A stretch of 63,313 nucleotides of DNA, the filler included, from Candidatus Fermentibacterota bacterium (GTDB lineage: Bacteria > JAFGKV01): the NCBI GenBank assembly GCA_016928395.1. It is 7 parts of 7 records of this genome, joined end to end, with 100 filler letters (N's around TTAATTAATTAA, not from the genome) between each part and the next. Parts side by side here need not be neighbours in the genome. Positions count along the whole stretch, not along the records: positions 1 to 6,713 come from JAFGKV010000027.1; 6 more parts are not named here. The stretch is one strand, 5' to 3'. Of this stretch, positions 1 to 54,262 are shown one piece after another. Numbering within the stretch: position 1 is the first letter of the stretch; each line of letters starts with the position of its first letter. Position numbers and translations under genes: made by a program. The notes beneath the pieces were generated by a model. That model searched no databases, had not been told where the DNA came from, and was given only the letters and a program-made list of their open reading frames with translations.

Positions 1-17
1 CGAATCCCTCGTTTTGA

Positions 18-92
18 CCACTATTCTAAACTTAGAATAGCTCCCCGCACGGCACTGCCGCACCCAGTAACTTGCCATTTTACCAACGTCCC
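18..92 (+). mobile_element. Right end of ~430-bp dispersed element (cut by contig start)
   Basis: Palindrome CTATTCTAA-AC-TTAGAATAG (21-40) and GTAACTTGCCATTTTACCAACGTCCC (67-92). The same two motifs occur at the same 46-nt offset at 2856 and 2902. Confidence 0.75.
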
Positions 93-183
93 GCTGGTCT
101 CCCACCAGATCCGGGTCTCTTGGGGATCCGATATGGGCAGTTCCTCCAGCGAAGCACTTCTCAGGACTTGATGTGAAACGTCG

Positions 184-1323
184 ATGATGATTGGCCCTGG
201 CACCAACGATCCAGAGTCCGCGGTCGCCGGCCTTGCGGCACGTTACCCGGAGAAGACCTCCTATCTCGGCCGCGTGTTCAACGACACCACGAACTCCTAC
301 AAGCTCATCTGGTTCCTGGCCATTCTCTCGCTGCTTCGTCGGAACGAGAGCACGTCATTCTCCCTGCCGGAGCTGTTCGCCGAGATGGGCACGATCGCCT
401 GGCACCCAGTGTGCCTCTACAGGCTCTCCCTCGGGCGGCAGGACAAACTCCAGGACGCGGTGCGAGAGATACGGTCTCGTTCGAGCCTCCCCGCCAACGC
501 AACGCCGGGTTCGGTGCGAACGTTCGTGCTGGAGTCCGAGGAGGCGGGCAGGAGCCTCGACTTCATACGGAACTACGTGCCGGCGCGTTTCCTCGCGCCG
601 TGGTTCGCCGAGGAACTTCGCGGCCACAAGGACTCCGTGCGCAACCGGCTCATAGCAGAACTGGCTGCGTCGAGCCAGCACACCTCGTCAGCCTGCCCCT
701 ACTGGCTCGGCGACGGGCGCATCCACCTCAACGAGTCGTGGCGGGCGTTCCTCCTCGAGAACATTGCGATGGTGGAGGCATTCGCCGAGTACCACTTCGC
801 CCACTACCTGCAGGTGCGGAATCCGAACGTGCCCGGCATCGTGAACAAGCTCCGCGCACCGGTTGCCCGGCAGCTCGGGGATGCGCGGCGATTCTGGAGG
901 CTGGTGCGTCACGGTTTTGAACAGTCCGGGAAGGCGGACCTCTTCGGGGATATCTATGCGGGACGCCCACTGGGCGACGACTTCGCGATTGACCATTTCC
1001 TGCCCTGGAGTTTCGCGCTCCACGACCTGCTCTGGAACCTCACGCCAGTCGAATCTGGAACCAACTCCAGCAAGAGCGATTCCCTTCCCGACATCGAGCT
1101 CTATCTGCCCCGGCTTGCCCGGCTGCACTTTGAGGTCGTCGAGACGATGCAGAGTCACCCAAGGCTGCTCGAAGACCACACCGACTGCTTCAAGCTCGAG
1201 CCCAGTGATCTTCTGGCTCTCGGGGAGGACGGACTGACAGCGAAGTACCGGGAAGTGGTGATCCCACAAGCCCAAATCGCGATGAATCAGGGCTTCCCGT
1301 CCGGGTGGGCGTTCAGGGAGTGA
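184..1323 (+). CDS. HNH endonuclease domain protein (putative defence/restriction nuclease)
   Basis: N-terminal TTNSYKLIWFLAIL motif; C-terminal IDHFLPWS...LWNLTPV...NSSKSD HNH-type signature. Confidence 0.85.
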   Translation: MMIGPGTNDPESAVAGLAARYPEKTSYLGRVFNDTTNSYKLIWFLAILSLLRRNESTSFSLPELFAEMGTIAWHPVCLYRLSLGRQDKLQDAVREIRSRSSLPANATPGSVRTFVLESEEAGRSLDFIRNYVPARFLAPWFAEELRGHKDSVRNRLIAELAASSQHTSSACPYWLGDGRIHLNESWRAFLLENIAMVEAFAEYHFAHYLQVRNPNVPGIVNKLRAPVARQLGDARRFWRLVRHGFEQSGKADLFGDIYAGRPLGDDFAIDHFLPWSFALHDLLWNLTPVESGTNSSKSDSLPDIELYLPRLARLHFEVVETMQSHPRLLEDHTDCFKLEPSDLLALGEDGLTAKYREVVIPQAQIAMNQGFPSGWAFRE

Positions 1324-1805
1324 GCCTCGACGTGACGACCTTCGGAGCAATCGAGCAAGACCTGATCCTTGCCGAGGATGACTTGTTCATCGTCGCGCGA
1401 GACAAGTTCCCCGTCTCGCCGGGACATACGCTGGTCATCGTGCGACGTGTCGTATCGCGATTTCTCGACCTGACTGCGGAGGAGAAGACCCGGCTGCTGC
1501 GGTGGATCGACTGGTCTGTCGCTCACCTGCAGAACACCCTGAATCCACGCCCCGACGGCTTCAACATCGGACTGAACGACGGGCCCGCAGCCGGCCAGAC
1601 CATCGCCCAGCTTCACGTCCACATCATCCCCCGCTACAGGGGTGACATCCCCGATCCCCGCGGCGGCGTCCGCCACGTGATCCCCCAGAAGGCCAAGTAT
1701 TGGTCGGATGACATGACCGCCGATCTCCATGATCCAGTTCACCTCAGAGAAGACCGCGTCAGTCTCAGACAGGACGGACAGCATGACCACGTTATTCGGA
1801 GTTGA
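1320..1805 (+). CDS. HIT family nucleotide hydrolase
   Basis: DKFPVSPGHTLVI, GFNIGLNDGPAAGQTIAQLHVHIIPRYRGD. GTG start overlaps the HNH stop (GTGA). Confidence 0.9.
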   Translation: MSLDVTTFGAIEQDLILAEDDLFIVARDKFPVSPGHTLVIVRRVVSRFLDLTAEEKTRLLRWIDWSVAHLQNTLNPRPDGFNIGLNDGPAAGQTIAQLHVHIIPRYRGDIPDPRGGVRHVIPQKAKYWSDDMTADLHDPVHLREDRVSLRQDGQHDHVIRS

Positions 1806-2484
1806 TTGTGCTACGGTCCCCAGGAAGACTGGCCTCGCCCTCGGAGAGTTGTCCGGGGAGATAGTACGAATCACCAAGTGTCGCACAGCCTCTGCCAAGG
1901 AGCCGCCCGCGGTTATTGCTGCGGATTGGCTCAGTACCCACGAGCGAGTGATTATCGCTATTGACGCCCCGCTGGGATGGCCAGTAGGGCTCCGGAAGGG
2001 TATTGGGGAGCACAGCGCGGGGGACCCTCTGTCAGTCTGTGCAGATGAGATGTTTCGCCGGGCCACGGACCTGGAGATCGAGGAAAGACTTGGAAAGAGA
2101 CCCCTGGAGGTTGGGGCAAACCTGATCGCCCGAACTGCTGCGGCCGCCCTCGGGTTTCTCGAAGAACTCCGCAACCGGACCGGCCGTGAGATCCCGATTG
2201 CCTGGGACCCCGATCAAGAGGATGCCTGGCGCGCCATTGAAGTATACCCTGCGGCTACTCGCATCGGGCACGGTGCACCTGATCGCGGAGGCAGCCTCAA
2301 CGGGCTGGGCAGGCTGCTGGATTGCACCGGTCTTCCAGCGAAGGCACTCAAGTCGAAAGACGCCGTCGACGCAACGGTGTGTGCGCTTGCGGCTGCCGAC
2401 TTCCTACGTGGCCGATCAGTCGCGCCCGTCGACGTTGACACTGCTCGTATTGAAGGCTGGATCTGGGCGCCGCGGGCAAGGTGA
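1783..2484 (+). CDS. DUF429 family predicted nuclease (RNase H-like fold)
   Basis: GVD, IAIDAPLGWP, RRATD, IEVYPAA, DAVDA, EGWIW motifs. Start at 1783 preferred; 1729 is possible. Confidence 0.85.
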   Translation: MTTLFGVDCATVPRKTGLALGELSGEIVRITKCRTASAKEPPAVIAADWLSTHERVIIAIDAPLGWPVGLRKGIGEHSAGDPLSVCADEMFRRATDLEIEERLGKRPLEVGANLIARTAAAALGFLEELRNRTGREIPIAWDPDQEDAWRAIEVYPAATRIGHGAPDRGGSLNGLGRLLDCTGLPAKALKSKDAVDATVCALAAADFLRGRSVAPVDVDTARIEGWIWAPRAR

Positions 2485-2497
2485 TCAGGGGCACGGC

Positions 2498-2930
2498 CTA
2501 TGGACTTAGGCAAAGCGCCAACTTACGGGGAACCGCAGGCGCCGATTCGGAAGTTGCCGAACGTGAATCTGCGCTGTGGAGCGGGCACGTAGCCGCTGCG
2601 CGGCAGCTCTCAGCCAGCCGACTCCTTTCCCTCTTCACCTCCCTACTTCTTCACCTCTTCGCCCCTTGACTTCTTCATCTCCTCACTCTTTACTCCTATC
2701 TCCTCACTCAAAGGACACCTTCACCATGGGGCCGTGATGGATACGATCGGATCGCACATCCTCCTCTCCCGCTCGAGGCGGCGATCCGGTGTACCCGCCG
2801 GGGGATTCGCCTGCTCATGCCACGTATTCGGCGAAGCCGGGGCCGATACTGCCCACTATTCTAAGGTTAGAATAGTGGGTTTCGGAGGCCATACTCGATC
2901 GGTAACTTACCATTTTACCAACGTCCCTAG
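2498..2930 (+). mobile_element. Complete ~430-bp non-coding MITE/REPIN-like element with imperfect terminal inverted repeats
   Basis: Left end CTATGGACTTAGGCAAAGCG aligns with CTAGGGACGTTGGTAAAATG at 6634. Right end CATTTTACCAACGTCCCTAG (2911-2930) is the exact reverse complement of 6634-6653. Contains a 13-bp-arm palindrome (2852-2879). Internal blocks are shared with 6670-6713 and 57363-57670. Confidence 0.75.
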
Positions 2931-2940
2931 TTCCACTGAA

Positions 2941-4248
2941 GTGGTCAATGTGCTGACCGTGGTCGCCAACGAGAGTTTCTCCGCGTTCGCAAACGGGCTC
3001 CAGCGAGAGTATGTTGAGGCTGGAGATGCCCCGCCGCCATTGCCCACCGATGCGAAGCGGCGAAGGCAAGCCAAGCGCAACGATCGGATCTACCTCGACG
3101 ATCCGCACTTCCAGCGTTTCTGGAGTCAGCTCAACCGGCTTGTTCGCTACCGCATCCGCGTCGTCACCCCGGAACTGGTTGACGCGTGTGTCAAAAGGCT
3201 CAACGACAGCCCCTTCCCGGTTCGCACCCTTGCCGTCGAGAAGGGCAGGATCAACCTCGGGGCGTACAAGGTACACGTTGATCGAGTTGAATCCGGAAAG
3301 GCCCAGCTCACGCTCACGCTGTTCGACGATGAGGGGGAGCCCGTCGTGCATCAGAGGCGTTTCAAACCGGGTGACGACATCGCAAGGGAGCTGCACGAGG
3401 ATCGTCTTCGACCTCTTGGAGCTCTCGATATTGAGCAGGCGGGGGGCTCCTACGACGTTGTCTTCACCTCTCTTGCCAGGCGCGTCAGCGAGGGTGAGGA
3501 GTGGGAGTTCACACCGACCGGATTCGGCGCTACCGCCCAGAAGCAGATCGTGCAGGTGGAGGCCCGCCGTTATCCGGTGTTCAACCTGATTGACCGCGCA
3601 TCACGGGATACAGGGATCACGCGGCCCACGGTCAATGCGATCTTCAAAGGCATGCGCAATGACAAGAAGCGCCTCATCTTCGAGAATCCGGAGGGCTTCG
3701 CCACCGTCTTCATCGGCGAACTCCGGAACGCGCTGGCCGACCACATCACCGAGCGAATCGAGTTTGTCGTTGACGCCGGGGTCGGGCGGTTCGACCGCGA
3801 TGAGCTTTTCCCGCAAGTATGTGAGCATCCCCAGAGGGAACTCATCGAAGCCGGCGAGCATGGGCTGTACGACTTGGTCCAGAAGGATTCAGAGGTCGAA
3901 CAGCACTACGTCGATGCGATCCGACATGAAGGGGACTCCATCGTTTTCTACTTCAAGTTCCCGCCGAAGTTCAAGATCGATCTTCCGCGGCTCATCGGCG
4001 ACTACAACCCCGACTGGGGCATCGCCCGGATCCACCGCAATGGCGACATGGAGGTCCGCACCTTCGTCCACGAAACCAAGGGCACAACGCAGATCGGCAA
4101 GCTCCGCTTCCCTCACGAGAAGCGGAAAGTACGGTGCGCCGAGAAGTACTTCGCCACCATCGGCGTCAACTACCAGACCATCGACCCGAGTCACGTCGGC
4201 GCCTGGTGGGCGACCTCCGCCGAACGTGGCGTACAGACTGAGATGTAG
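2941..4248 (+). pseudogene. res: 5'-truncated type III restriction-modification Res subunit (C-terminal endonuclease half)
   Basis: Begins at VNVLTVVANESF..F...LQRE, which follows helicase motif VI in Res proteins. Contains DSEVE, FKFPPKFKI, YNPDW...HETKG, EKRKVRCAEKYF. No helicase motifs upstream; the element occupies that position. Confidence 0.85.
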
Positions 4249-4262
4249 GGGAGAAGCGCGCC

Positions 4263-6116
4263 GTGGCGAAATCCTCTCCCACGCCCTCCAGCAGCGAAGA
4301 GCAGCCAACCAAACTGACTCCCTTCGCGCAGAGCCTGCTTGACGTCTTCGAAGACAGCCTCCGCTCAACCCTGCACTTCGGAGCCCTCGGCGAGCACCTG
4401 GTGTCGGAATCGGGGCTGGCGGTATCGCGTCTAGAATACGTACTCCGTCATTGCCATTGCCTCGCGGGGCTATCGAAGGAGAACCCCGGCATCGGCCTCT
4501 CATCACGCTGCAGATTCCCGAGCCAGGCCGGTGAGGGAGGACTGGCATGGAAGGGTTTGGGCCGCCTCTCCGGGCTCGAAGTATGCCAATCGTGGTCAGT
4601 GCTCCTGAACATCGGGCACCTTTTCGGTACCTTCGCGACTGAACGCGGTCTGCTCTTTCAGCTCGACAAGGACTTAGACGCGAGAGACGGATTCCTTGGA
4701 GGCGCCTGTTCCCACTTCGAGGGTCAGGCTGGCGATGTCCGAAAGATGGGAGAGGAGCTGCTAGACCGAGCACAGCTGTACCGATTCCACTATCTCCTTG
4801 CTCTTTGGCGGTTGAGAGCAGACAACAACCTGCCCGTGGACGACGCAATCCGCCGCAAGGCTGCACTGCTGGTACTTGCCTTCCTCTCTCCTCCAAGTGC
4901 AAAGCTGAGTCAACTGGCCCACATCTACCGGAAGACCCGAACGCTCGCATACCTTTCGCTTCATGCTGAGATCGGGGTAATGGAACCCCTCTGCAACGTG
5001 AAGGGGCTGCAGCGCTATCGGCAGCTCTTTCCGATCGACGCGATCCTGGAGGACAGCCTCGTCGAACCTGGACAATGGAACCTCATCGAGGCAATGGATC
5101 TCTCGGATTCGGAGCGGCTTTTCAATGCCCCCGATGCGGCAGGCATCGTCCTTGCTCACGCCAGGCAATTCCGGCAGTGGTGGGATCAGCGAAGGGCGAA
5201 TGGCTCTTCCTTCGGAGCTCTCATCGATGAGGCGTTCGGGAAGCCAGACGACTGGCCCGGGGCGCCTGCGCGAGAACTCCAGCACTTCGGGCGTATCTAC
5301 CTGCCGTCACGAGTGGGCTGGCTCGAAGAGGTCAGACTCTGGAAACATGACGAGAGTCAGAACAACCCATGGCGAGACTCTGACTTCCTCGTAACGCCAC
5401 CTCAGCAGAGATCTGAGGGACTCCATCTGGACCTGTACGCGGGGGCCTCTGGGATGAGTATCCAGACGGCCCGGCACATCACACTGCAGCTTTCTCGAGC
5501 CCTCTCATTCAGTCCAGAAGGGCAGTCAATGCGCAGGCTATGGATGACCACCGCGCGGTTCGTCGCCAAGGTCTTCCAGGGGTGCCTCAAGCCCGAATAT
5601 TCCCTGCGGCTCACGCCCCTCGAGGCTAGAGGAGATCACCTTGGGTACGGTACGGCCGGTTCGAGCTACGAACTGGCCCGTGGATTCGTCAAACGTTTCC
5701 TTGTAGAGTGCACCGATCCTCAGCGGACGATGGAGTTGAGACAACTTCTCGCCATCGGGGACAGGGATGAGTTCTGGCGGGTGCCTGCTCTCATCATGAT
5801 GGCACGGGCAGAAGTCATCAGCTCCGACGGGCAGTCGATAACCGATCTCGATGGGCTCCTTGGGAAGTTCCAGGGAGACTCGTTGGTCTGGACGGTTGTG
5901 GAGACCAAGAAATCGCCCACTCGAGGGGGCAAGACACAACTGCGGGATCGTGCAGATATCTACCTTGCTGTCGAACGAAGCTCCGAGGTCGAGGTGGTGA
6001 TCAATAGACAACACGTGCAATGGTTCACGGCCATATCCCCTGACCCAATCGCGTCAAGGCTATCCGGCGAGTGTGTGATTCCTGGGAGCACCGCGAAACG
6101 AGAGGAGGATCCATGA
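4263..6116 (+). CDS. Uncharacterised 617-aa protein: degenerate HD-domain-like N-terminus plus putative PD-(D/E)xK nuclease C-terminus
   Basis: Long ORF 14 nt after the res stop. SRLEY / LLNIGHLFGTFATE / RTLAYLSLH parallel HD dNTPase motifs; TDLDG...VETK at the C-terminus. The domain calls are by eye. Confidence 0.6.
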   Translation: MAKSSPTPSSSEEQPTKLTPFAQSLLDVFEDSLRSTLHFGALGEHLVSESGLAVSRLEYVLRHCHCLAGLSKENPGIGLSSRCRFPSQAGEGGLAWKGLGRLSGLEVCQSWSVLLNIGHLFGTFATERGLLFQLDKDLDARDGFLGGACSHFEGQAGDVRKMGEELLDRAQLYRFHYLLALWRLRADNNLPVDDAIRRKAALLVLAFLSPPSAKLSQLAHIYRKTRTLAYLSLHAEIGVMEPLCNVKGLQRYRQLFPIDAILEDSLVEPGQWNLIEAMDLSDSERLFNAPDAAGIVLAHARQFRQWWDQRRANGSSFGALIDEAFGKPDDWPGAPARELQHFGRIYLPSRVGWLEEVRLWKHDESQNNPWRDSDFLVTPPQQRSEGLHLDLYAGASGMSIQTARHITLQLSRALSFSPEGQSMRRLWMTTARFVAKVFQGCLKPEYSLRLTPLEARGDHLGYGTAGSSYELARGFVKRFLVECTDPQRTMELRQLLAIGDRDEFWRVPALIMMARAEVISSDGQSITDLDGLLGKFQGDSLVWTVVETKKSPTRGGKTQLRDRADIYLAVERSSEVEVVINRQHVQWFTAISPDPIASRLSGECVIPGSTAKREEDP

Positions 6117-6529
6117 CAGGCTACTGGTTGGTCAACACGAACGAGAGGCATCGGCCAGACACGAAGGCGCACATGCTCGCCAACAGGTGCGTGTGCGCCC
6201 AGTACGACCCCAAGGTTGACATCGATCGAATCTCCGCAGGCGATGTCGTCTTCATCTATGAGAACGTCGTGGGCATCATCGGCTACGGCATCGCAGATGG
6301 CCGAATCATCATCAGAGACTACAAAGGGGAGCGGAACGAACAGCACGAGATGCGCCTCGACCAGTTCGAGGTTCTCCCGCAACCGATCACCCCTTCACAG
6401 ATCAGCGCGATCTCCTGGAATCTCGATAGAGCAGGGGTCTTTTACGCCCGCACCGTCGTCCCCTTGCGCGATCTTGCGGGCGCCGAACTGTACCGCATCG
6501 CCAAGGAGCTGATACGATCGGGCGACTGA
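6113..6529 (+). CDS. EVE/PUA-like domain protein
   Basis: YWLVNTN ... ISAGDVVFIYENVVGIIGYG ... LPQPIT. RBS GAGGAGG; ATGA overlap with the upstream stop. Confidence 0.65.
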   Translation: MTGYWLVNTNERHRPDTKAHMLANRCVCAQYDPKVDIDRISAGDVVFIYENVVGIIGYGIADGRIIIRDYKGERNEQHEMRLDQFEVLPQPITPSQISAISWNLDRAGVFYARTVVPLRDLAGAELYRIAKELIRSGD

Positions 6530-6633
6530 CCGCTGAAGACGCCAGACCAACACGGATCATCAGCGCATGGAGGTACAACCCTATGACCATTCTGCGCGGA
6601 GCACCTGGGGGACGTTGGTGCAGAAAGCGGCTC

Positions 6634-6713
6634 CTAGGGACGTTGGTAAAATGTCAACTTCCGGGGTGTTGCAGGCGCCGGTTTCGAAGTTGCCGAACGA
6701 GAGTCTGCGCTGC
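6634..6713 (+). mobile_element. Left end of ~430-bp element (cut by contig end)
   Basis: CTAGGGACGTTGGTAAAATGTCAACTTCCGGGG...GCAGGCGCCG...GAAGTTGCCGAACGAGAGTCTGCGCTG is colinear with 2498-2576. An extra GGGGGACGTTGGT copy lies at 6607-6619. Confidence 0.75.
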
Positions 6714-50904: not shown

Positions 50905-51751
50905 AACCTACTACTTCCTGAGCCGCACCGTAGGCACGGCAGGAGAATCGGGCGACTCCGACCGGGTCGGCGAGCACGAGGTGGCGTTGCCGTAAGATGC
51001 ACACGCCTGGAGGCTCCCTGCGAATGAGCAATTGGGGAGAGTGCAGATCCCGTCGCCACACCCCCGCATCCTGTGGTGCAGAGGAGAACTTGAGTGACAT
51101 TCTATGTCTCCAGTGGTCACGTGTCCTATGTGACGGGTGGGTGCTGCGTAGCATGACTGGGGCAGTCTGGGGACATACGTGACTTGTCAGCTCACTCGCA
51201 CGATGGGAGGCTGATGACAACCTCTCGATGAGGATCTTTGGGAGACGTCGATTCCGGGAGCGCGCGGAGAACAGGGGTAGCAGCTCGCTGAAGCGTGACT
51301 TCCGGCTGCGTTCTCTCTTGCTTGGCGAGGGGCTATCGGCGTTCGGCTTCTTCGCGTTGCGAGGAGTTGACAGTTCACAATCGACGGTTGACGGTGGGCT
51401 CGCTGCGCGAGCGGGATTCGGGTTCAGGGTTCAATGCGCTCACTCGACACTCCGCAATCGAGATGCTAGCGGCTGTTGGCTGGCCTGATGAAGGAGCCCA
51501 ACACTCACCACGTTCATTCCCTCCCAGTCCGTCGAGGAGTTTCTTGCCGGCAGCCCGACTGAGCAGCCTGCCTCTCGCCGCACAGGTGGAAGACCCTGAG
51601 CTCTCTTGTGGGAGAGCATTTCCCGTTGACGGCCCACTGCATAATAGGCCATATTCGTGTCCACCCTCACTCAGGGAATCATGCCCGCGGTGTCCTACCT
51701 GTGGTGGGCGCACGCACCTCGGCATCGCGGGAAAACGGGAAGGAGACTTCC

Positions 51752-54262
51752 ATGTCCTCGCGGCGTCTAGTGCTCCTCGGTATGCTTTGCTGTCTTCTCG
51801 TCTTCTCGGCGTCTGCGGAGATCCCGCAACTGATCAACTATCAGGGCAAGGTGACCGATTCCGGCGGAACTCCGGTGGCTGATGGCGCCTACTCAATGAC
51901 ATTCTCGATCTACGACGCCTCCACGGGCGGCAGTTCGCTGTGGAGCAGCGGAGCGGTGAGCGTGACGGTGAGCGGCGGGGTGTTCAGCGTCGTGCTGGGC
52001 GAGAGCCCGCAACCCGCCTTGAGTCTGGACTTCTCTGCGGACTACTGGGTGGAGACGAGTATCGAGGGTGACCTCCAGAGTCCGCGCGCCAGGCTTGGTT
52101 CGGTGGGCTATGCGTATATGGCCAGCGGTCTTGTGGCCGGCACCGAGGTCGAAGGATCAGTGAGCAGTGGGAACCTGGCTGCCATCAGTGGGACCAACAC
52201 CTCGACCGTCAACGCTGCCCGTGGTGTGTACGGCAGCGTCTCGAGCGCGACGGGCCGGGGTATGGAAGGAGTGGCCACCTCCTCGACGGGCACCGCGTTC
52301 GGGGGGCGGTTCGAGAGCCAATCGGAGGCGGGGCGGGGCGTGTTGGGGCATGCGTCGGCAACCACGGGCACGACCTACGGTGTGCGGGGCACGTGCAGCT
52401 CGACCGCGGGGACGGCGGTGTACGGAAGAGCACTGGCGACCGAGGGGACGACGTATGGGGTGTACGGCGAGACGAATTCGACTGACGGATATGCCGGCTT
52501 TTTCGCGGGCAATGCCCGGGTGACGGGGAACATGACTATTGATGGCGCCCTAAACGCCTCCGGACTGGGCGACATCACGGCGGTGACCGCGGGGACGGGT
52601 CTGACCGGCGGCGGCGCGACCGGAGACGTCACCCTGAGCGTGGAAGTGCCGCTCTCCCTTACCAGCACATCGACTCAGACCATTCAGGGCACCAACACCT
52701 CTGCCACCGGCTACACCTTTGGCGGCTACTTCACGAGCCAATCTCCCGATGGCCGGGGCGTGCTGGGCAGCGCAACGTCCACCACCGGGATAAACTACGG
52801 GGTTCGAGGGCTCAGCAGCTCGGTCTCGGGCACCGCCGTGTACGGTGAGGCCCTGGCCACGACGGGGACGAACTACGGCGTGTACGGGAAGACGAACTCC
52901 ACCTCGGGCTGGGCCGGCTACTTCCAGGGCGACTCGCGCGTAACCGGCAACCTCACGGTGGACGGTACACTCAGCGCTCCTGGGCTGGGCGATATCACCG
53001 CGGTGACCGCGGGGACGGGTCTGACCGGCGGGGGCACCAGCGGCGCGGTGACGCTGAACGTGGCGGTACCTCTTTCCCTCACCAGCACCTCGACTCATAC
53101 TATTCAGGGCACCAACACCGCCGCCACCGGCATCCGCTACGGCCTCTATGGGGAGACCGCCTCGACCGCCGGGCGCGCGGTCTATGGGGCGGCAACCGCC
53201 TCCTCTGGCGGAGCCATCGGTGTCTACGGCCAGAGCGCGTCGACCGCCGGGTATGGAGTCTACGGGGAAGCGATGCGAACCACAGGCGGGACGTTCGGCG
53301 TCTACGGCATGAGTTCCTCCACCGCCGGCCACGGGGTGTATGGGGTTGCCACTGCCGCATCGGGCCTCACCTACGGCGTCCACGGCAGGACTGATTCTTC
53401 CGGTGGCATCGCGGTCTGGGGACAAGCAACCGCCACCACCGGTAATGCATATGGTGTCTACGGTGAATCGGCATCCTCAGGTGGGACGGGCGTCCGTGGC
53501 GTGGCAACTGCAAGCTCGGGTTCCACAAACGGAGGTTCATTCGCCAGCTATTCAACGTCCGGGACAGGCGTCTCAGGCGTGGCCGATGCCTCGGCGGGCT
53601 ACACCTACGGAGGCAGATTGTTCTCCTACTCGCCGTCGGGCATGGGTGTGTTCGGAAAGGCCTGGTCAAGCTCGGGCCAGTGTATCGGCGTCTATGGCGA
53701 GACCGCGTCTTCCGACGGGTACGGCGTGTACTACTATGGAGGTCTCGGCGGAGTAGGCAAGATGACGTCAATCGTACGCACATCCAAGGGTCCGACGGGC
53801 CTCGGCGTGCACACCACCGCGGGCGACTGGGTCGAAGACTTCGGGGAAGGGCAACTTGTGAACGGGCGATGCCACATCGAGCTGGATCCGCTGTTCCTGG
53901 AGACCGTGACGATCGATGCGGCCAATCCGATGAAGGTGTTTGTCGAACTTGGAGGAAGGTGCCGCGGGGTGTTTGTCGAACGCGGTGTGACGGGCTTTGA
54001 CGTCATAGAGCAAGATGACGGCACGAGCGCTGTGCCCTTTTGCTTCCGCGTTGTGGCCAAGCGCAAGGGATTCGAGGAGAAGCGACTGGACTACTGCAAG
54101 GCAGCGGAGAGGGATTCGTATTTGCATCCCGAGTTGCGGGAAGAGCAACTGCGCGAAAGGGCAGCGGAACGAGACCGCCGGCGCGACGAACACGCGCGTA
54201 TGGATGAGGAACGCCGTCTGCAAGAAGCCGCGATGGCCTTCTCTGCGTCTATGCCCGAGTAG
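51752..54262 (+). CDS. Secreted Gly/Thr-rich repeat (fibre/beta-helix-like) protein
   Basis: RBS AAGGAG; signal peptide; IPQLINYQGK.TD domain; many GVYG repeats; C-terminal EDFGEGQL.NG...IELDPLF domain and charged helical tail. Confidence 0.88.
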   Translation: MSSRRLVLLGMLCCLLVFSASAEIPQLINYQGKVTDSGGTPVADGAYSMTFSIYDASTGGSSLWSSGAVSVTVSGGVFSVVLGESPQPALSLDFSADYWVETSIEGDLQSPRARLGSVGYAYMASGLVAGTEVEGSVSSGNLAAISGTNTSTVNAARGVYGSVSSATGRGMEGVATSSTGTAFGGRFESQSEAGRGVLGHASATTGTTYGVRGTCSSTAGTAVYGRALATEGTTYGVYGETNSTDGYAGFFAGNARVTGNMTIDGALNASGLGDITAVTAGTGLTGGGATGDVTLSVEVPLSLTSTSTQTIQGTNTSATGYTFGGYFTSQSPDGRGVLGSATSTTGINYGVRGLSSSVSGTAVYGEALATTGTNYGVYGKTNSTSGWAGYFQGDSRVTGNLTVDGTLSAPGLGDITAVTAGTGLTGGGTSGAVTLNVAVPLSLTSTSTHTIQGTNTAATGIRYGLYGETASTAGRAVYGAATASSGGAIGVYGQSASTAGYGVYGEAMRTTGGTFGVYGMSSSTAGHGVYGVATAASGLTYGVHGRTDSSGGIAVWGQATATTGNAYGVYGESASSGGTGVRGVATASSGSTNGGSFASYSTSGTGVSGVADASAGYTYGGRLFSYSPSGMGVFGKAWSSSGQCIGVYGETASSDGYGVYYYGGLGGVGKMTSIVRTSKGPTGLGVHTTAGDWVEDFGEGQLVNGRCHIELDPLFLETVTIDAANPMKVFVELGGRCRGVFVERGVTGFDVIEQDDGTSAVPFCFRVVAKRKGFEEKRLDYCKAAERDSYLHPELREEQLRERAAERDRRRDEHARMDEERRLQEAAMAFSASMPE

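Follow-up and report, generated by a model that had tools for sequence, protein, structure and literature searches.

A gene-less repeat between gene blocks of a Fermentibacterota contig, probably a non-autonomous relative of TIRtrons

In a 63,313-nucleotide stretch of DNA from a Candidatus Fermentibacterota bacterium (assembly GCA_016928395.1), co-oriented copies of a non-coding element of about 430 bp alternate with blocks of genes, which raises the question of what this element is and whether it carries, or shuffles, the genes between its copies. The whole stretch, hereafter the window, consists of seven contigs joined by N spacers, and the analysis of the element covers contig 1 (JAFGKV010000027.1, positions 1-6713, 60.5% G+C). 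An earlier note, made from the sequence alone, had called the element unrecognised and proposed that it captures or shuffles defence genes into a cassette-like array with the layout of an integron. Based on motif counts, comparisons with related genomes and metagenome contigs, and published descriptions of similar units, we propose that the ~430-bp unit is probably a gene-less, non-autonomous relative of the TIRtrons, i.e. of small mobile units whose terminal inverted repeats (TIRs) enclose a tyrosine-transposase gene of the Y1 HUH type, and that it is mosaic with lineage-specific repeats. On this reading, the blocks of genes are simply ordinary DNA between elements and do not represent cassettes.

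Contig 1 reads, in order, as a right end of the element, three genes, one full copy of about 430 bp, three genes and a left end, with every element copy and all six genes on the plus strand (Table 1). Both ends of the contig fall within the repeat, as the earlier note had observed. That the same-orientation copies represent a genuine repeat is borne out by motif counts. A 17-nt end motif occurs three times in the window, each time on contig 1 (plus strand: 76-92 and 2911-2927; minus strand: 6637-6653), against a shuffle expectation of 0.10, with three sites reached in none of 100 shuffles, and a palindrome of the 9-2-9 type occurs twice (21-40 and 2856-2875) against an expectation of 0.00. From one copy to the next the palindrome block is displaced by 2835 nt, and so is the 26-nt end block (67-92 and 2902-2927), which confirms the arrangement previously described, in which the palindrome starts 46 nt before each end block and the intervening 26 nt are unlike in the two copies. 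Measured to the 17-mer, the gap is 35 nt in the window copies and in a metagenome contig, L001, described below. The proposed inverted-repeat ends stand for the 17-nt motif and less well for the full copy, copy 2, whose left end is degenerate: 17 of 26 positions agree with the right end of the same copy (manual count), and an 80-nt comparison with copy 3 gives 79% identity. The trinucleotide TAG, which was said to follow the copies, is replaced by GCT after copy 1. An additional end-like head is found about 30 nt upstream of copy 3 (6607-6629). Comparison with plasmid and phage DNA returned no match, and an Rfam search gave two sub-threshold, chance-level matches, neither of them inside the element.

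The type of the ends becomes clear from the closest genome found, a metagenome-assembled genome labelled Candidatus Eisenbacteria (G001, hereafter the sister genome), in which the counterpart of the SecD encoded on another window contig is 79% identical (next best 66%, others at most 57%). One of its contigs, G001:C235, contains a 1095-bp unit (1258-2352) in which a gene for a Y1_Tnp protein (PF01797, E 1e-8) is bracketed by inverted ends like those in the window. Judged by sequence, the 26-nt ends of the window are shown to be of the same type as those flanking this gene, and the unit represents the autonomous element with the same ends for which the earlier note had advised a search. The reading frame is already open inside the left end, with a GTG start available, and the enzyme comprises 321-345 aa, with a C-terminal match to Bac_DnaA_C (E 0.0034) that lies under the Pfam cut-off. 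The HUH histidines H69 and H71, as well as Y128 of a YIHxNP motif, are invariant in an alignment of eight sequences, namely the G001 protein, six homologues and one short protein resembling the transposases (RAYTs) associated with repetitive extragenic palindromic (REP) sequences.

Units of this kind are already in print, yet little studied as far as the cited sections present them. Those of Di Nocera et al. 2013 (PMC3733652) describe tyrosine-transposase genes with long flanking inverted repeats, the units being termed TIRtrons and the enzymes TIRYT, with a head consensus GGGGWSAS and moderately abundant TIR repeat families that occur as dimers or clusters. According to the cited sections of Quentin et al. 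2018 (PMC6006769), most TIRYTs belong to TnpA_REP subclass 2.1 and have a C-terminus like Bac_DnaA_C, HTH_23 or HTH_28. The element can hence no longer be called unrecognised; the earlier note had itself held that ends matching a catalogued insertion sequence whose ordinary insertions explain the layout would tell against its proposal, and part of this is what was found. Its description of a non-autonomous, inverted-end repeat related to REP/REPIN-type biology is supported.

Enzymes of the TIRYT type are RAYT relatives whose C-terminus is a DnaA_C-like helix-turn-helix. Of 200 relatives searched, 55 contain homologues of the G001 TIRYT, and many of these have more than one copy. Among 30 homologue loci examined, a usable gene was called in 19 and none in 11. 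The 13 loci with clear inverted repeats that were tabulated, chosen by inverted-repeat score, have inverted ends of 15-39 nt, most of them beginning GGGG(A/T)C, and no target duplication is consistent across the 13 units. The closest homologues with clear ends (53%, 45% and 37-39% identity) have the heads GGGACGTTG, GGGGACGTTG and GGGGACGTAG, and the window's end head is likewise GGGACGTTG; since the heads of the closest homologues match that of the window, the end type tracks enzyme relatedness. More distant homologues have the head GGGGTCAG, which fits GGGGWSAS fully.

Gene-less pairs of such ends are found in the relative G125, whose TIRYT is 37-39% identical to the G001 protein and whose end head occurs at 23 sites, against none in a reversed control. 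The 14 G125 places (L211-L224) comprise one autonomous unit of 1100 bp, seven distinct pairs of 68-121 bp, one of which occurs twice, at two contig ends, and five places with one exact head each, in four of which a degenerate partner is visible by eye. The pairs have identical 27-nt ends around interiors that are unrelated and of differing length, and these interiors are therefore not simple deletion products of the autonomous unit. No target duplication was detected at the miniature pairs, and no non-transposase gene was seen between an end pair in G125. Such enzymes are thus normally accompanied by end pairs that lack a gene.

Modules of the window's element recur outside the window in a narrow set of sources. 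An exact scan for palindrome plus end gave no match in 185,579 species genomes and a single match among metagenome contigs, the 1263-bp L001, where an NYN-domain gene matching the candidate defence family HEC-09 (PADLOC E 1.3e-39) lies between two right modules of the same orientation, the second of them having palindrome, 35-nt gap and end all as in the window. The sister genome contains 14 element matches at E <= 1e-6 and five left-end sites, with 84-90% identity for the left module (query 1-126) and 72-79% for the right module (216-398); in its contigs C109 and C174, the two modules keep the collinear arrangement of the window around unlike middles. Among 200 relatives of G001, with the top three candidates per genome scored, an element match was obtained in G001 only. 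None of the six contig 1 genes has a DNA match in G001, and the G001 loci retrieved include no orthologue of the other window contigs.

Same-orientation copies with gene blocks of 1-4 kb between them are present in the window, G001:C109, G001:C235 and L001. Across 18 element instances from the window, G001 and L001, merged by hand from the match lists, 12 of 14 genes on the upstream side and 10 of 13 on the downstream side share the orientation of the element, and left modules lie 11-230 nt past a co-oriented stop codon. The neighbours in G001 encode GH31, M16 and M20 peptidases, BipA, an ABC ATPase, DUF1579, an arylsulfotransferase-like protein and a radical SAM protein, and also VapBC, a second PIN protein and an antitoxin-like protein. 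Among ten neighbour proteins compared with PADLOC, eight from G001 gave no match, one from G001 was marginal (E 0.00096) and that of L001 is HEC-09. The neighbours are accessory and addiction genes with no clear defence bias; the defence enrichment anticipated in the earlier note is hinted at by L001 and is not seen among the mostly housekeeping-type neighbours in G001.

In the window, block 2 opens with a broken gene. Its res frame (504 codons) opens inside the element and is Res-like only from residue 69, which aligns with residue 559 of a 990-aa type III restriction enzyme (63% identity over Res residues 559-987). The onset of Res homology is 8-14 nt past the final base of the element. Because the alignment starts at Res residue 559 of 990, the helicase half of res, and mod, are missing. 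Domain and PADLOC searches detected no recombinase domain among the six contig 1 proteins.

Further information is provided by a metagenome run (X1), possibly the source of the assembly, which contains 98% of the stretch's sampled words. Its summed contig depth is 103-133 over 2465-2912 vs 12.6 over 3137-5824, i.e. element-like sequence is about 8-10 times as deep as the unique flank, a value that is a summed depth, not a copy number, and to which other organisms may contribute; the earlier suspicion that more copies exist is in agreement with it. One 3750-nt unitig covers precisely 2907-6656, starting within one end and stopping within the following one, and loose ends at 2614, 2657 and 2676 lead to other continuations. 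Over 2465-2907 the unitigs are of 44-356 nt and in several variants, in addition to a 48-nt match inside a 5493-nt contig, and among the 8 of 77 X1 pieces listed none spans this interval. A contig matching from 2945 continues upstream, and its translation resembles intact Res just before the break at 2944, which hints at an uninterrupted allele or at a homologue of another organism. We read the joints 1568>2727 and 2975>3992/3995, which are short-sided or stem from matches of low likeness inside res, as genes of other organisms. Cover over 225-2464 is little or none and carries no evidential weight.

Combining these data, we propose that a TIRYT encoded elsewhere in the genome would recognise the ends and move or copy the element, most likely via single-stranded DNA by analogy with IS200/IS605 and REP/RAYT. 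Strand-specific single-strand transposition, a mechanism taken from IS608 and ISDra2, would explain why the copies share one orientation and run in the direction of the genes beside them, and co-oriented elements may have a role at the transcript level. Several copies would have built up in an accessory region tolerant of insertion, and recombination or deletion beside a copy would have removed the 5' half of res.

A number of observations weigh against the assignment to TIRtrons. The copies are diverged, with 72-90% identity between genomes and 79% between the two left ends in the window, and recent movement is therefore not established; no empty site, excision junction or presence/absence polymorphism of the element was seen. 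The interior of the element is not derived from a TIRtron interior. The window head GGGACGTT and that of its close relatives, GGGGACGT, agree with GGGGWSAS at six of eight positions by our own count, and the best NCBIfam family of the G001:C235 enzyme, 'REP-associated tyrosine transposase' (REP_Tyr_transpos), scores 55.5 bits against a cut-off of 80. A comparison of the G001 TIRYT with solved structures gave no match, and the 63-kb window holds no TIRYT gene (best tblastn E 0.084), the partner enzyme being known from the sister genome. Moreover, TIRYT activity is untried experimentally according to the cited sections of PMC3733652 and PMC6006769, where binding and cleavage tests are raised as future work. 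Finally, three copies in 6.7 kb represent more clustering than simple random insertion predicts. The similar arrays in G001 and L001 suggest that this clustering is real even if copy 2 was mis-joined.

Were the copies instead junctions of a gene-cassette array, a recombinase or Y1 enzyme acting at the ends or at the palindrome would capture, excise and re-order defence blocks, either integron-like or as a composite or one-ended HUH system. Such an array would be consistent with the recurring blocks of the window, G001:C109, G001:C235 and L001, with a cargo that is defence-like or of the addiction type (DUF429/PDC-S44, the res fragment, HEC-09 in L001, VapBC and toxin-antitoxin parts in G001), with the presence in G001 of the modules and not of the six window genes, and with the identical ends around unrelated DNA in G125, which indicate that ends are not tied to one cargo. 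However, the gene blocks are not enclosed by the end pairs, whose heads point towards the genes; block 2 opens with a halved gene just beyond an end; G001 neighbours are mostly of housekeeping type, with PADLOC matches for 0 of 8; and G125 has no end pair around a non-transposase gene. Since res is broken, contig 1 lacks a recombinase and no circular or re-ordered form was seen, the X1 joints being low-likeness matches within res, a cassette system is argued against and we regard it as very unlikely, and with it the capture or shuffling of defence genes that the earlier note had put forward. A variant based on a tyrosine HUH transposase, not an integrase, would take the freedom of ends from cargo further, the same-orientation chains of this Eisenbacteria-like lineage being composite units that the Y1 HUH enzyme moves via single-stranded DNA, thereby carrying and re-assorting accessory and defence blocks, with the palindrome at its fixed 35 nt from the right end as a docking site that determines the point of action of the enzyme; we consider this improbable.

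The strong co-orientation and the position of left modules after co-oriented stop codons would also be expected of host intergenic sequences with control or structural roles, the left module acting as a 3'-end stabiliser or terminator and the right module with its palindrome as a promoter with operator; such sequences would not be mobile but would be maintained by selection, with vertical descent and local duplication as their only means of spread. The identity of 76-90% between species, in non-coding DNA, and the exact 18-nt palindrome kept in three sources agree with this, as does the view, in the cited sections of the literature, that most REPs are found past the end of a gene and may function as RNA elements. 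The ends, however, match the inverted repeats that flank a transposase gene, the palindrome is found in convergent regions more than in divergent ones (12 vs 5 of 50 sites), unlike an operator, and one copy abuts a broken gene; neither sigma-70-like promoter nor intrinsic terminator patterns were detected within the elements by a scan that may not suit this phylum, and no Rfam match falls in them. The left module as a structured RNA was dropped, with a covariation term of -0.36 for the consensus fold and 1 of 21 pairs compensatory. Control sequences are accordingly judged unlikely. Alternatively, the unit could be an ordinary miniature inverted-repeat transposable element (MITE) of a DDE family that duplicates a TA target, e.g. 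IS630/Tc1-mariner, in view of the TA just outside copy 2 on both sides, copy 3 and both ends of the G001:C235 unit. Yet copy 1 lacks the TA, that of G001:C235 belongs to the inverted repeat itself, neither the 13 tabulated units nor seven G125 pairs have a consistent duplication, and the Y1 gene is the only gene found between such ends, although no search was aimed at a DDE gene with these ends. An IS630-type MITE with TA duplication was rejected on the missing TA at copy 1 and the lack of a consistent duplication, and a DDE origin as a whole appears scarcely credible. It is also conceivable that the layout is in part an artefact of assembly, two loci having been joined through the repeat at copy 2, as the location of both contig ends in the repeat, the lack of a spanning piece among those listed from X1 and the unlike ends of copy 2 (left degenerate, right perfect) would allow. 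The presence of 98% of the sampled words in a single run and the similar arrays in independent G001 contigs and L001 speak against such a join, which we would not expect and which would alter the layout only, not the identity of the element.

The relationship to the TIRtrons is one of likeness with clear differences. Shared are inverted ends of the same type around a Y1 HUH gene with a C-terminal helix-turn-helix (HTH), seen in the sister genome, a head related to GGGGWSAS, the occurrence of the ends as a moderately abundant family in pairs and clusters, and the lack of a target duplication. In contrast, the copies described here are not bare end pairs but mosaics of 350-750 bp that include a foreign palindrome and conserved sub-terminal modules, their head is the variant GGGACGT, the enzyme gene is known from a sister genome and absent from the window, and the host belongs to a candidate phylum of which the cited sections of PMC3733652 and PMC6006769 make no mention.

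The element has features in common with other systems too. REPIN and REP-RAYT systems, reportedly described by Bertels and Rainey in 2011 and by Nunvar et al. in 2010, likewise consist of short non-coding repeats that form inverted pairs and are linked to a relative of the Y1 transposases, and the intergenic, lineage-specific distribution, the mosaics resembling bacterial interspersed mosaic elements and the internal GTAG head with small hairpin at 2584-2614 are reminiscent of them. Here, however, the ends are 26-nt inverted repeats, not GTAG-tagged palindromes, just one internal GTAG hairpin is present, the enzyme is under the cut-off of the RAYT model (55.5 vs 80 bits) and the copy number is low, with about 5-14 module matches in G001. 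The ends and the score led us to reject membership in this group. As in DDE-derived bacterial MITEs, the unit is small, non-coding and gene-adjacent, has inverted ends and breaks short-read assemblies, whereas it lacks a consistent target duplication, has a Y1 HUH partner and varies in its interior between copies. A recurring non-coding unit that separates co-oriented gene blocks is also seen in integron arrays; the element differs in being a ~430-bp unit with inverted ends, not attC, between multi-gene blocks and in the lack of an integrase, and with no recombinase domain in six proteins and a truncated first gene in block 2 an integron was rejected. Finally, IS200/IS605 elements such as IS608 and ISDra2 share the Y1 HUH domain, the lack of target duplication and a mechanism that is probably single-stranded and strand-biased (cited sections of PMC6006769); they have sub-terminal hairpins and no inverted ends, and a short TnpA, often with TnpB, that lacks a C-terminal HTH. 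Assignment to this family was rejected given the inverted ends and the 321-345-aa enzyme with an extra HTH.

A natural test set is hereby available, consisting of one apparently intact enzyme gene with its ends, gene-less mosaics and, in the relative G125, miniature pairs. The element explains why short-read assemblies of these organisms break beside accessory genes, and such breaks should not be read as cassette arrays.

Several observations concern the ends and the autonomous unit. TIRYT-type ends (window 67-92, 2902-2927 and 6637-6662; L181-L210) consist, by eye, of a GGGG-like head and, after it, two or three 8-9-mers in tandem, which would suit a role as candidate binding sites for the C-terminal DnaA_C-like HTH. 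In G001:C235 (L128, 1167-1290) the autonomous unit directly follows a left module, and the left end of the unit aligns where other copies have the GTAG-headed hairpin; the alignment suggests that left ends are nested or doubled there. In the same genome, G001:C309 (L180, about 590-1620) has a gene for a 137-aa RAYT-like Y1 protein with copies of a GC-rich REP-like repeat on both sides, which is a classical REP/RAYT arrangement alongside the TIRtron.

The AT-rich palindrome of the right module is a separate, lineage-specific intergenic repeat family. As a 20-22-nt motif it occurs in G001 at 71 sites with at most two mismatches (control 0) and at 61 with at most one, and it is absent from the 59 other relatives searched. 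In G001, 48 of 50 sites are intergenic, 12 between convergent, five between divergent and 26 between tandem genes; the distribution over convergent and divergent regions led to rejection of the palindrome as an operator. An end-like motif (at most five mismatches of 18) accompanies only 3 of the 50 sites, all at an offset of 32-34 nt, and the combination of palindrome, 35 nt and end therefore represents a specific sub-family, in which the fixed motif spacing of the earlier note recurs, as it does in L001. The exact 18-nt palindrome is conserved in three sources. At about half of the sites complementarity extends by at least 4 nt past the 20-nt core, 2 nt of which belong to the consensus, and the palindrome is often set in longer, locus-specific inverted flanks. 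In its distribution it resembles REP-like repeats, and it is an abundant lineage marker separate from the element.

Table 1. Element copies, their parts and the genes between them in contig 1 (window coordinates)
Feature	Position	Strand	Basis or content
Element copy 1, right end (contig begins inside)	1..92	+	palindrome 21-40, 26-nt spacer, 26-nt terminal inverted repeat block 67-92
HNH_4-domain protein, 379 aa, first gene of block 1	184..1323	+	PF13395, E 2.7e-8
HIT-family protein, 166 aa	1305..1805	+	Pfam; weak PADLOC match to ThsC2
DUF429 protein, 251 aa	1729..2484	+	Pfam; PADLOC candidate PDC-S44, E 4.9e-14
Element copy 2, full, gene-less	2498..2930	+	sequence repeats, module matches
Copy 2, degenerate left inverted repeat	2501-2526	+	part of 2498..2930
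Copy 2, conserved left core	2535-2562	+	part of 2498..2930
Copy 2, small hairpin with GTAG head	2584-2614	+	part of 2498..2930
Copy 2, pyrimidine-rich low-complexity middle	about 2626-2712	+	part of 2498..2930
Copy 2, right module	2713-2895	+	part of 2498..2930
AT-rich 9-2-9 palindrome, member of a lineage-wide intergenic repeat family	2856..2875	.	motif counts
Copy 2, right inverted repeat	2902-2927	+	part of 2498..2930
Type III restriction enzyme, C-terminal 44% (Res residues 559-990)	2938..4248	+	homology alignment
ORF617, 617-aa protein, no known family	4263..6116	+	no family match; only unnamed clusters
138-aa protein, possibly EVE/PUA-like (lead only)	6113..6529	+	gene call; Atlas lead
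Element copy 3, left end (contig stops inside)	6607..6713	+	end-like head 6607-6629, left inverted repeat 6637-6662, left core 6671-6698

The gene labels of the earlier note hold for HNH, HIT, DUF429 and the C-terminal fragment of res (Table 1). The label EVE for the last gene of block 2 gains no Pfam match at E 0.1, and the similarity of the 138-aa protein to an EVE cluster in the Atlas (feature score 0.95, rank 8) serves as a lead only. In block 1, HNH and HIT overlap by 19 nt (1305-1323) and HIT and DUF429 by 77 nt (1729-1805), and the block therefore looks like one operon; PADLOC holds no such system as a catalogued defence system. Elsewhere in the window, 51815-54146 matches four different G001 loci at 67-72% DNA identity. 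This region lies inside an open reading frame of 884 aa (51608-54262) with a weak fibre/adhesin-like N-terminal match, and by its matches it appears to belong to a multi-copy gene family.

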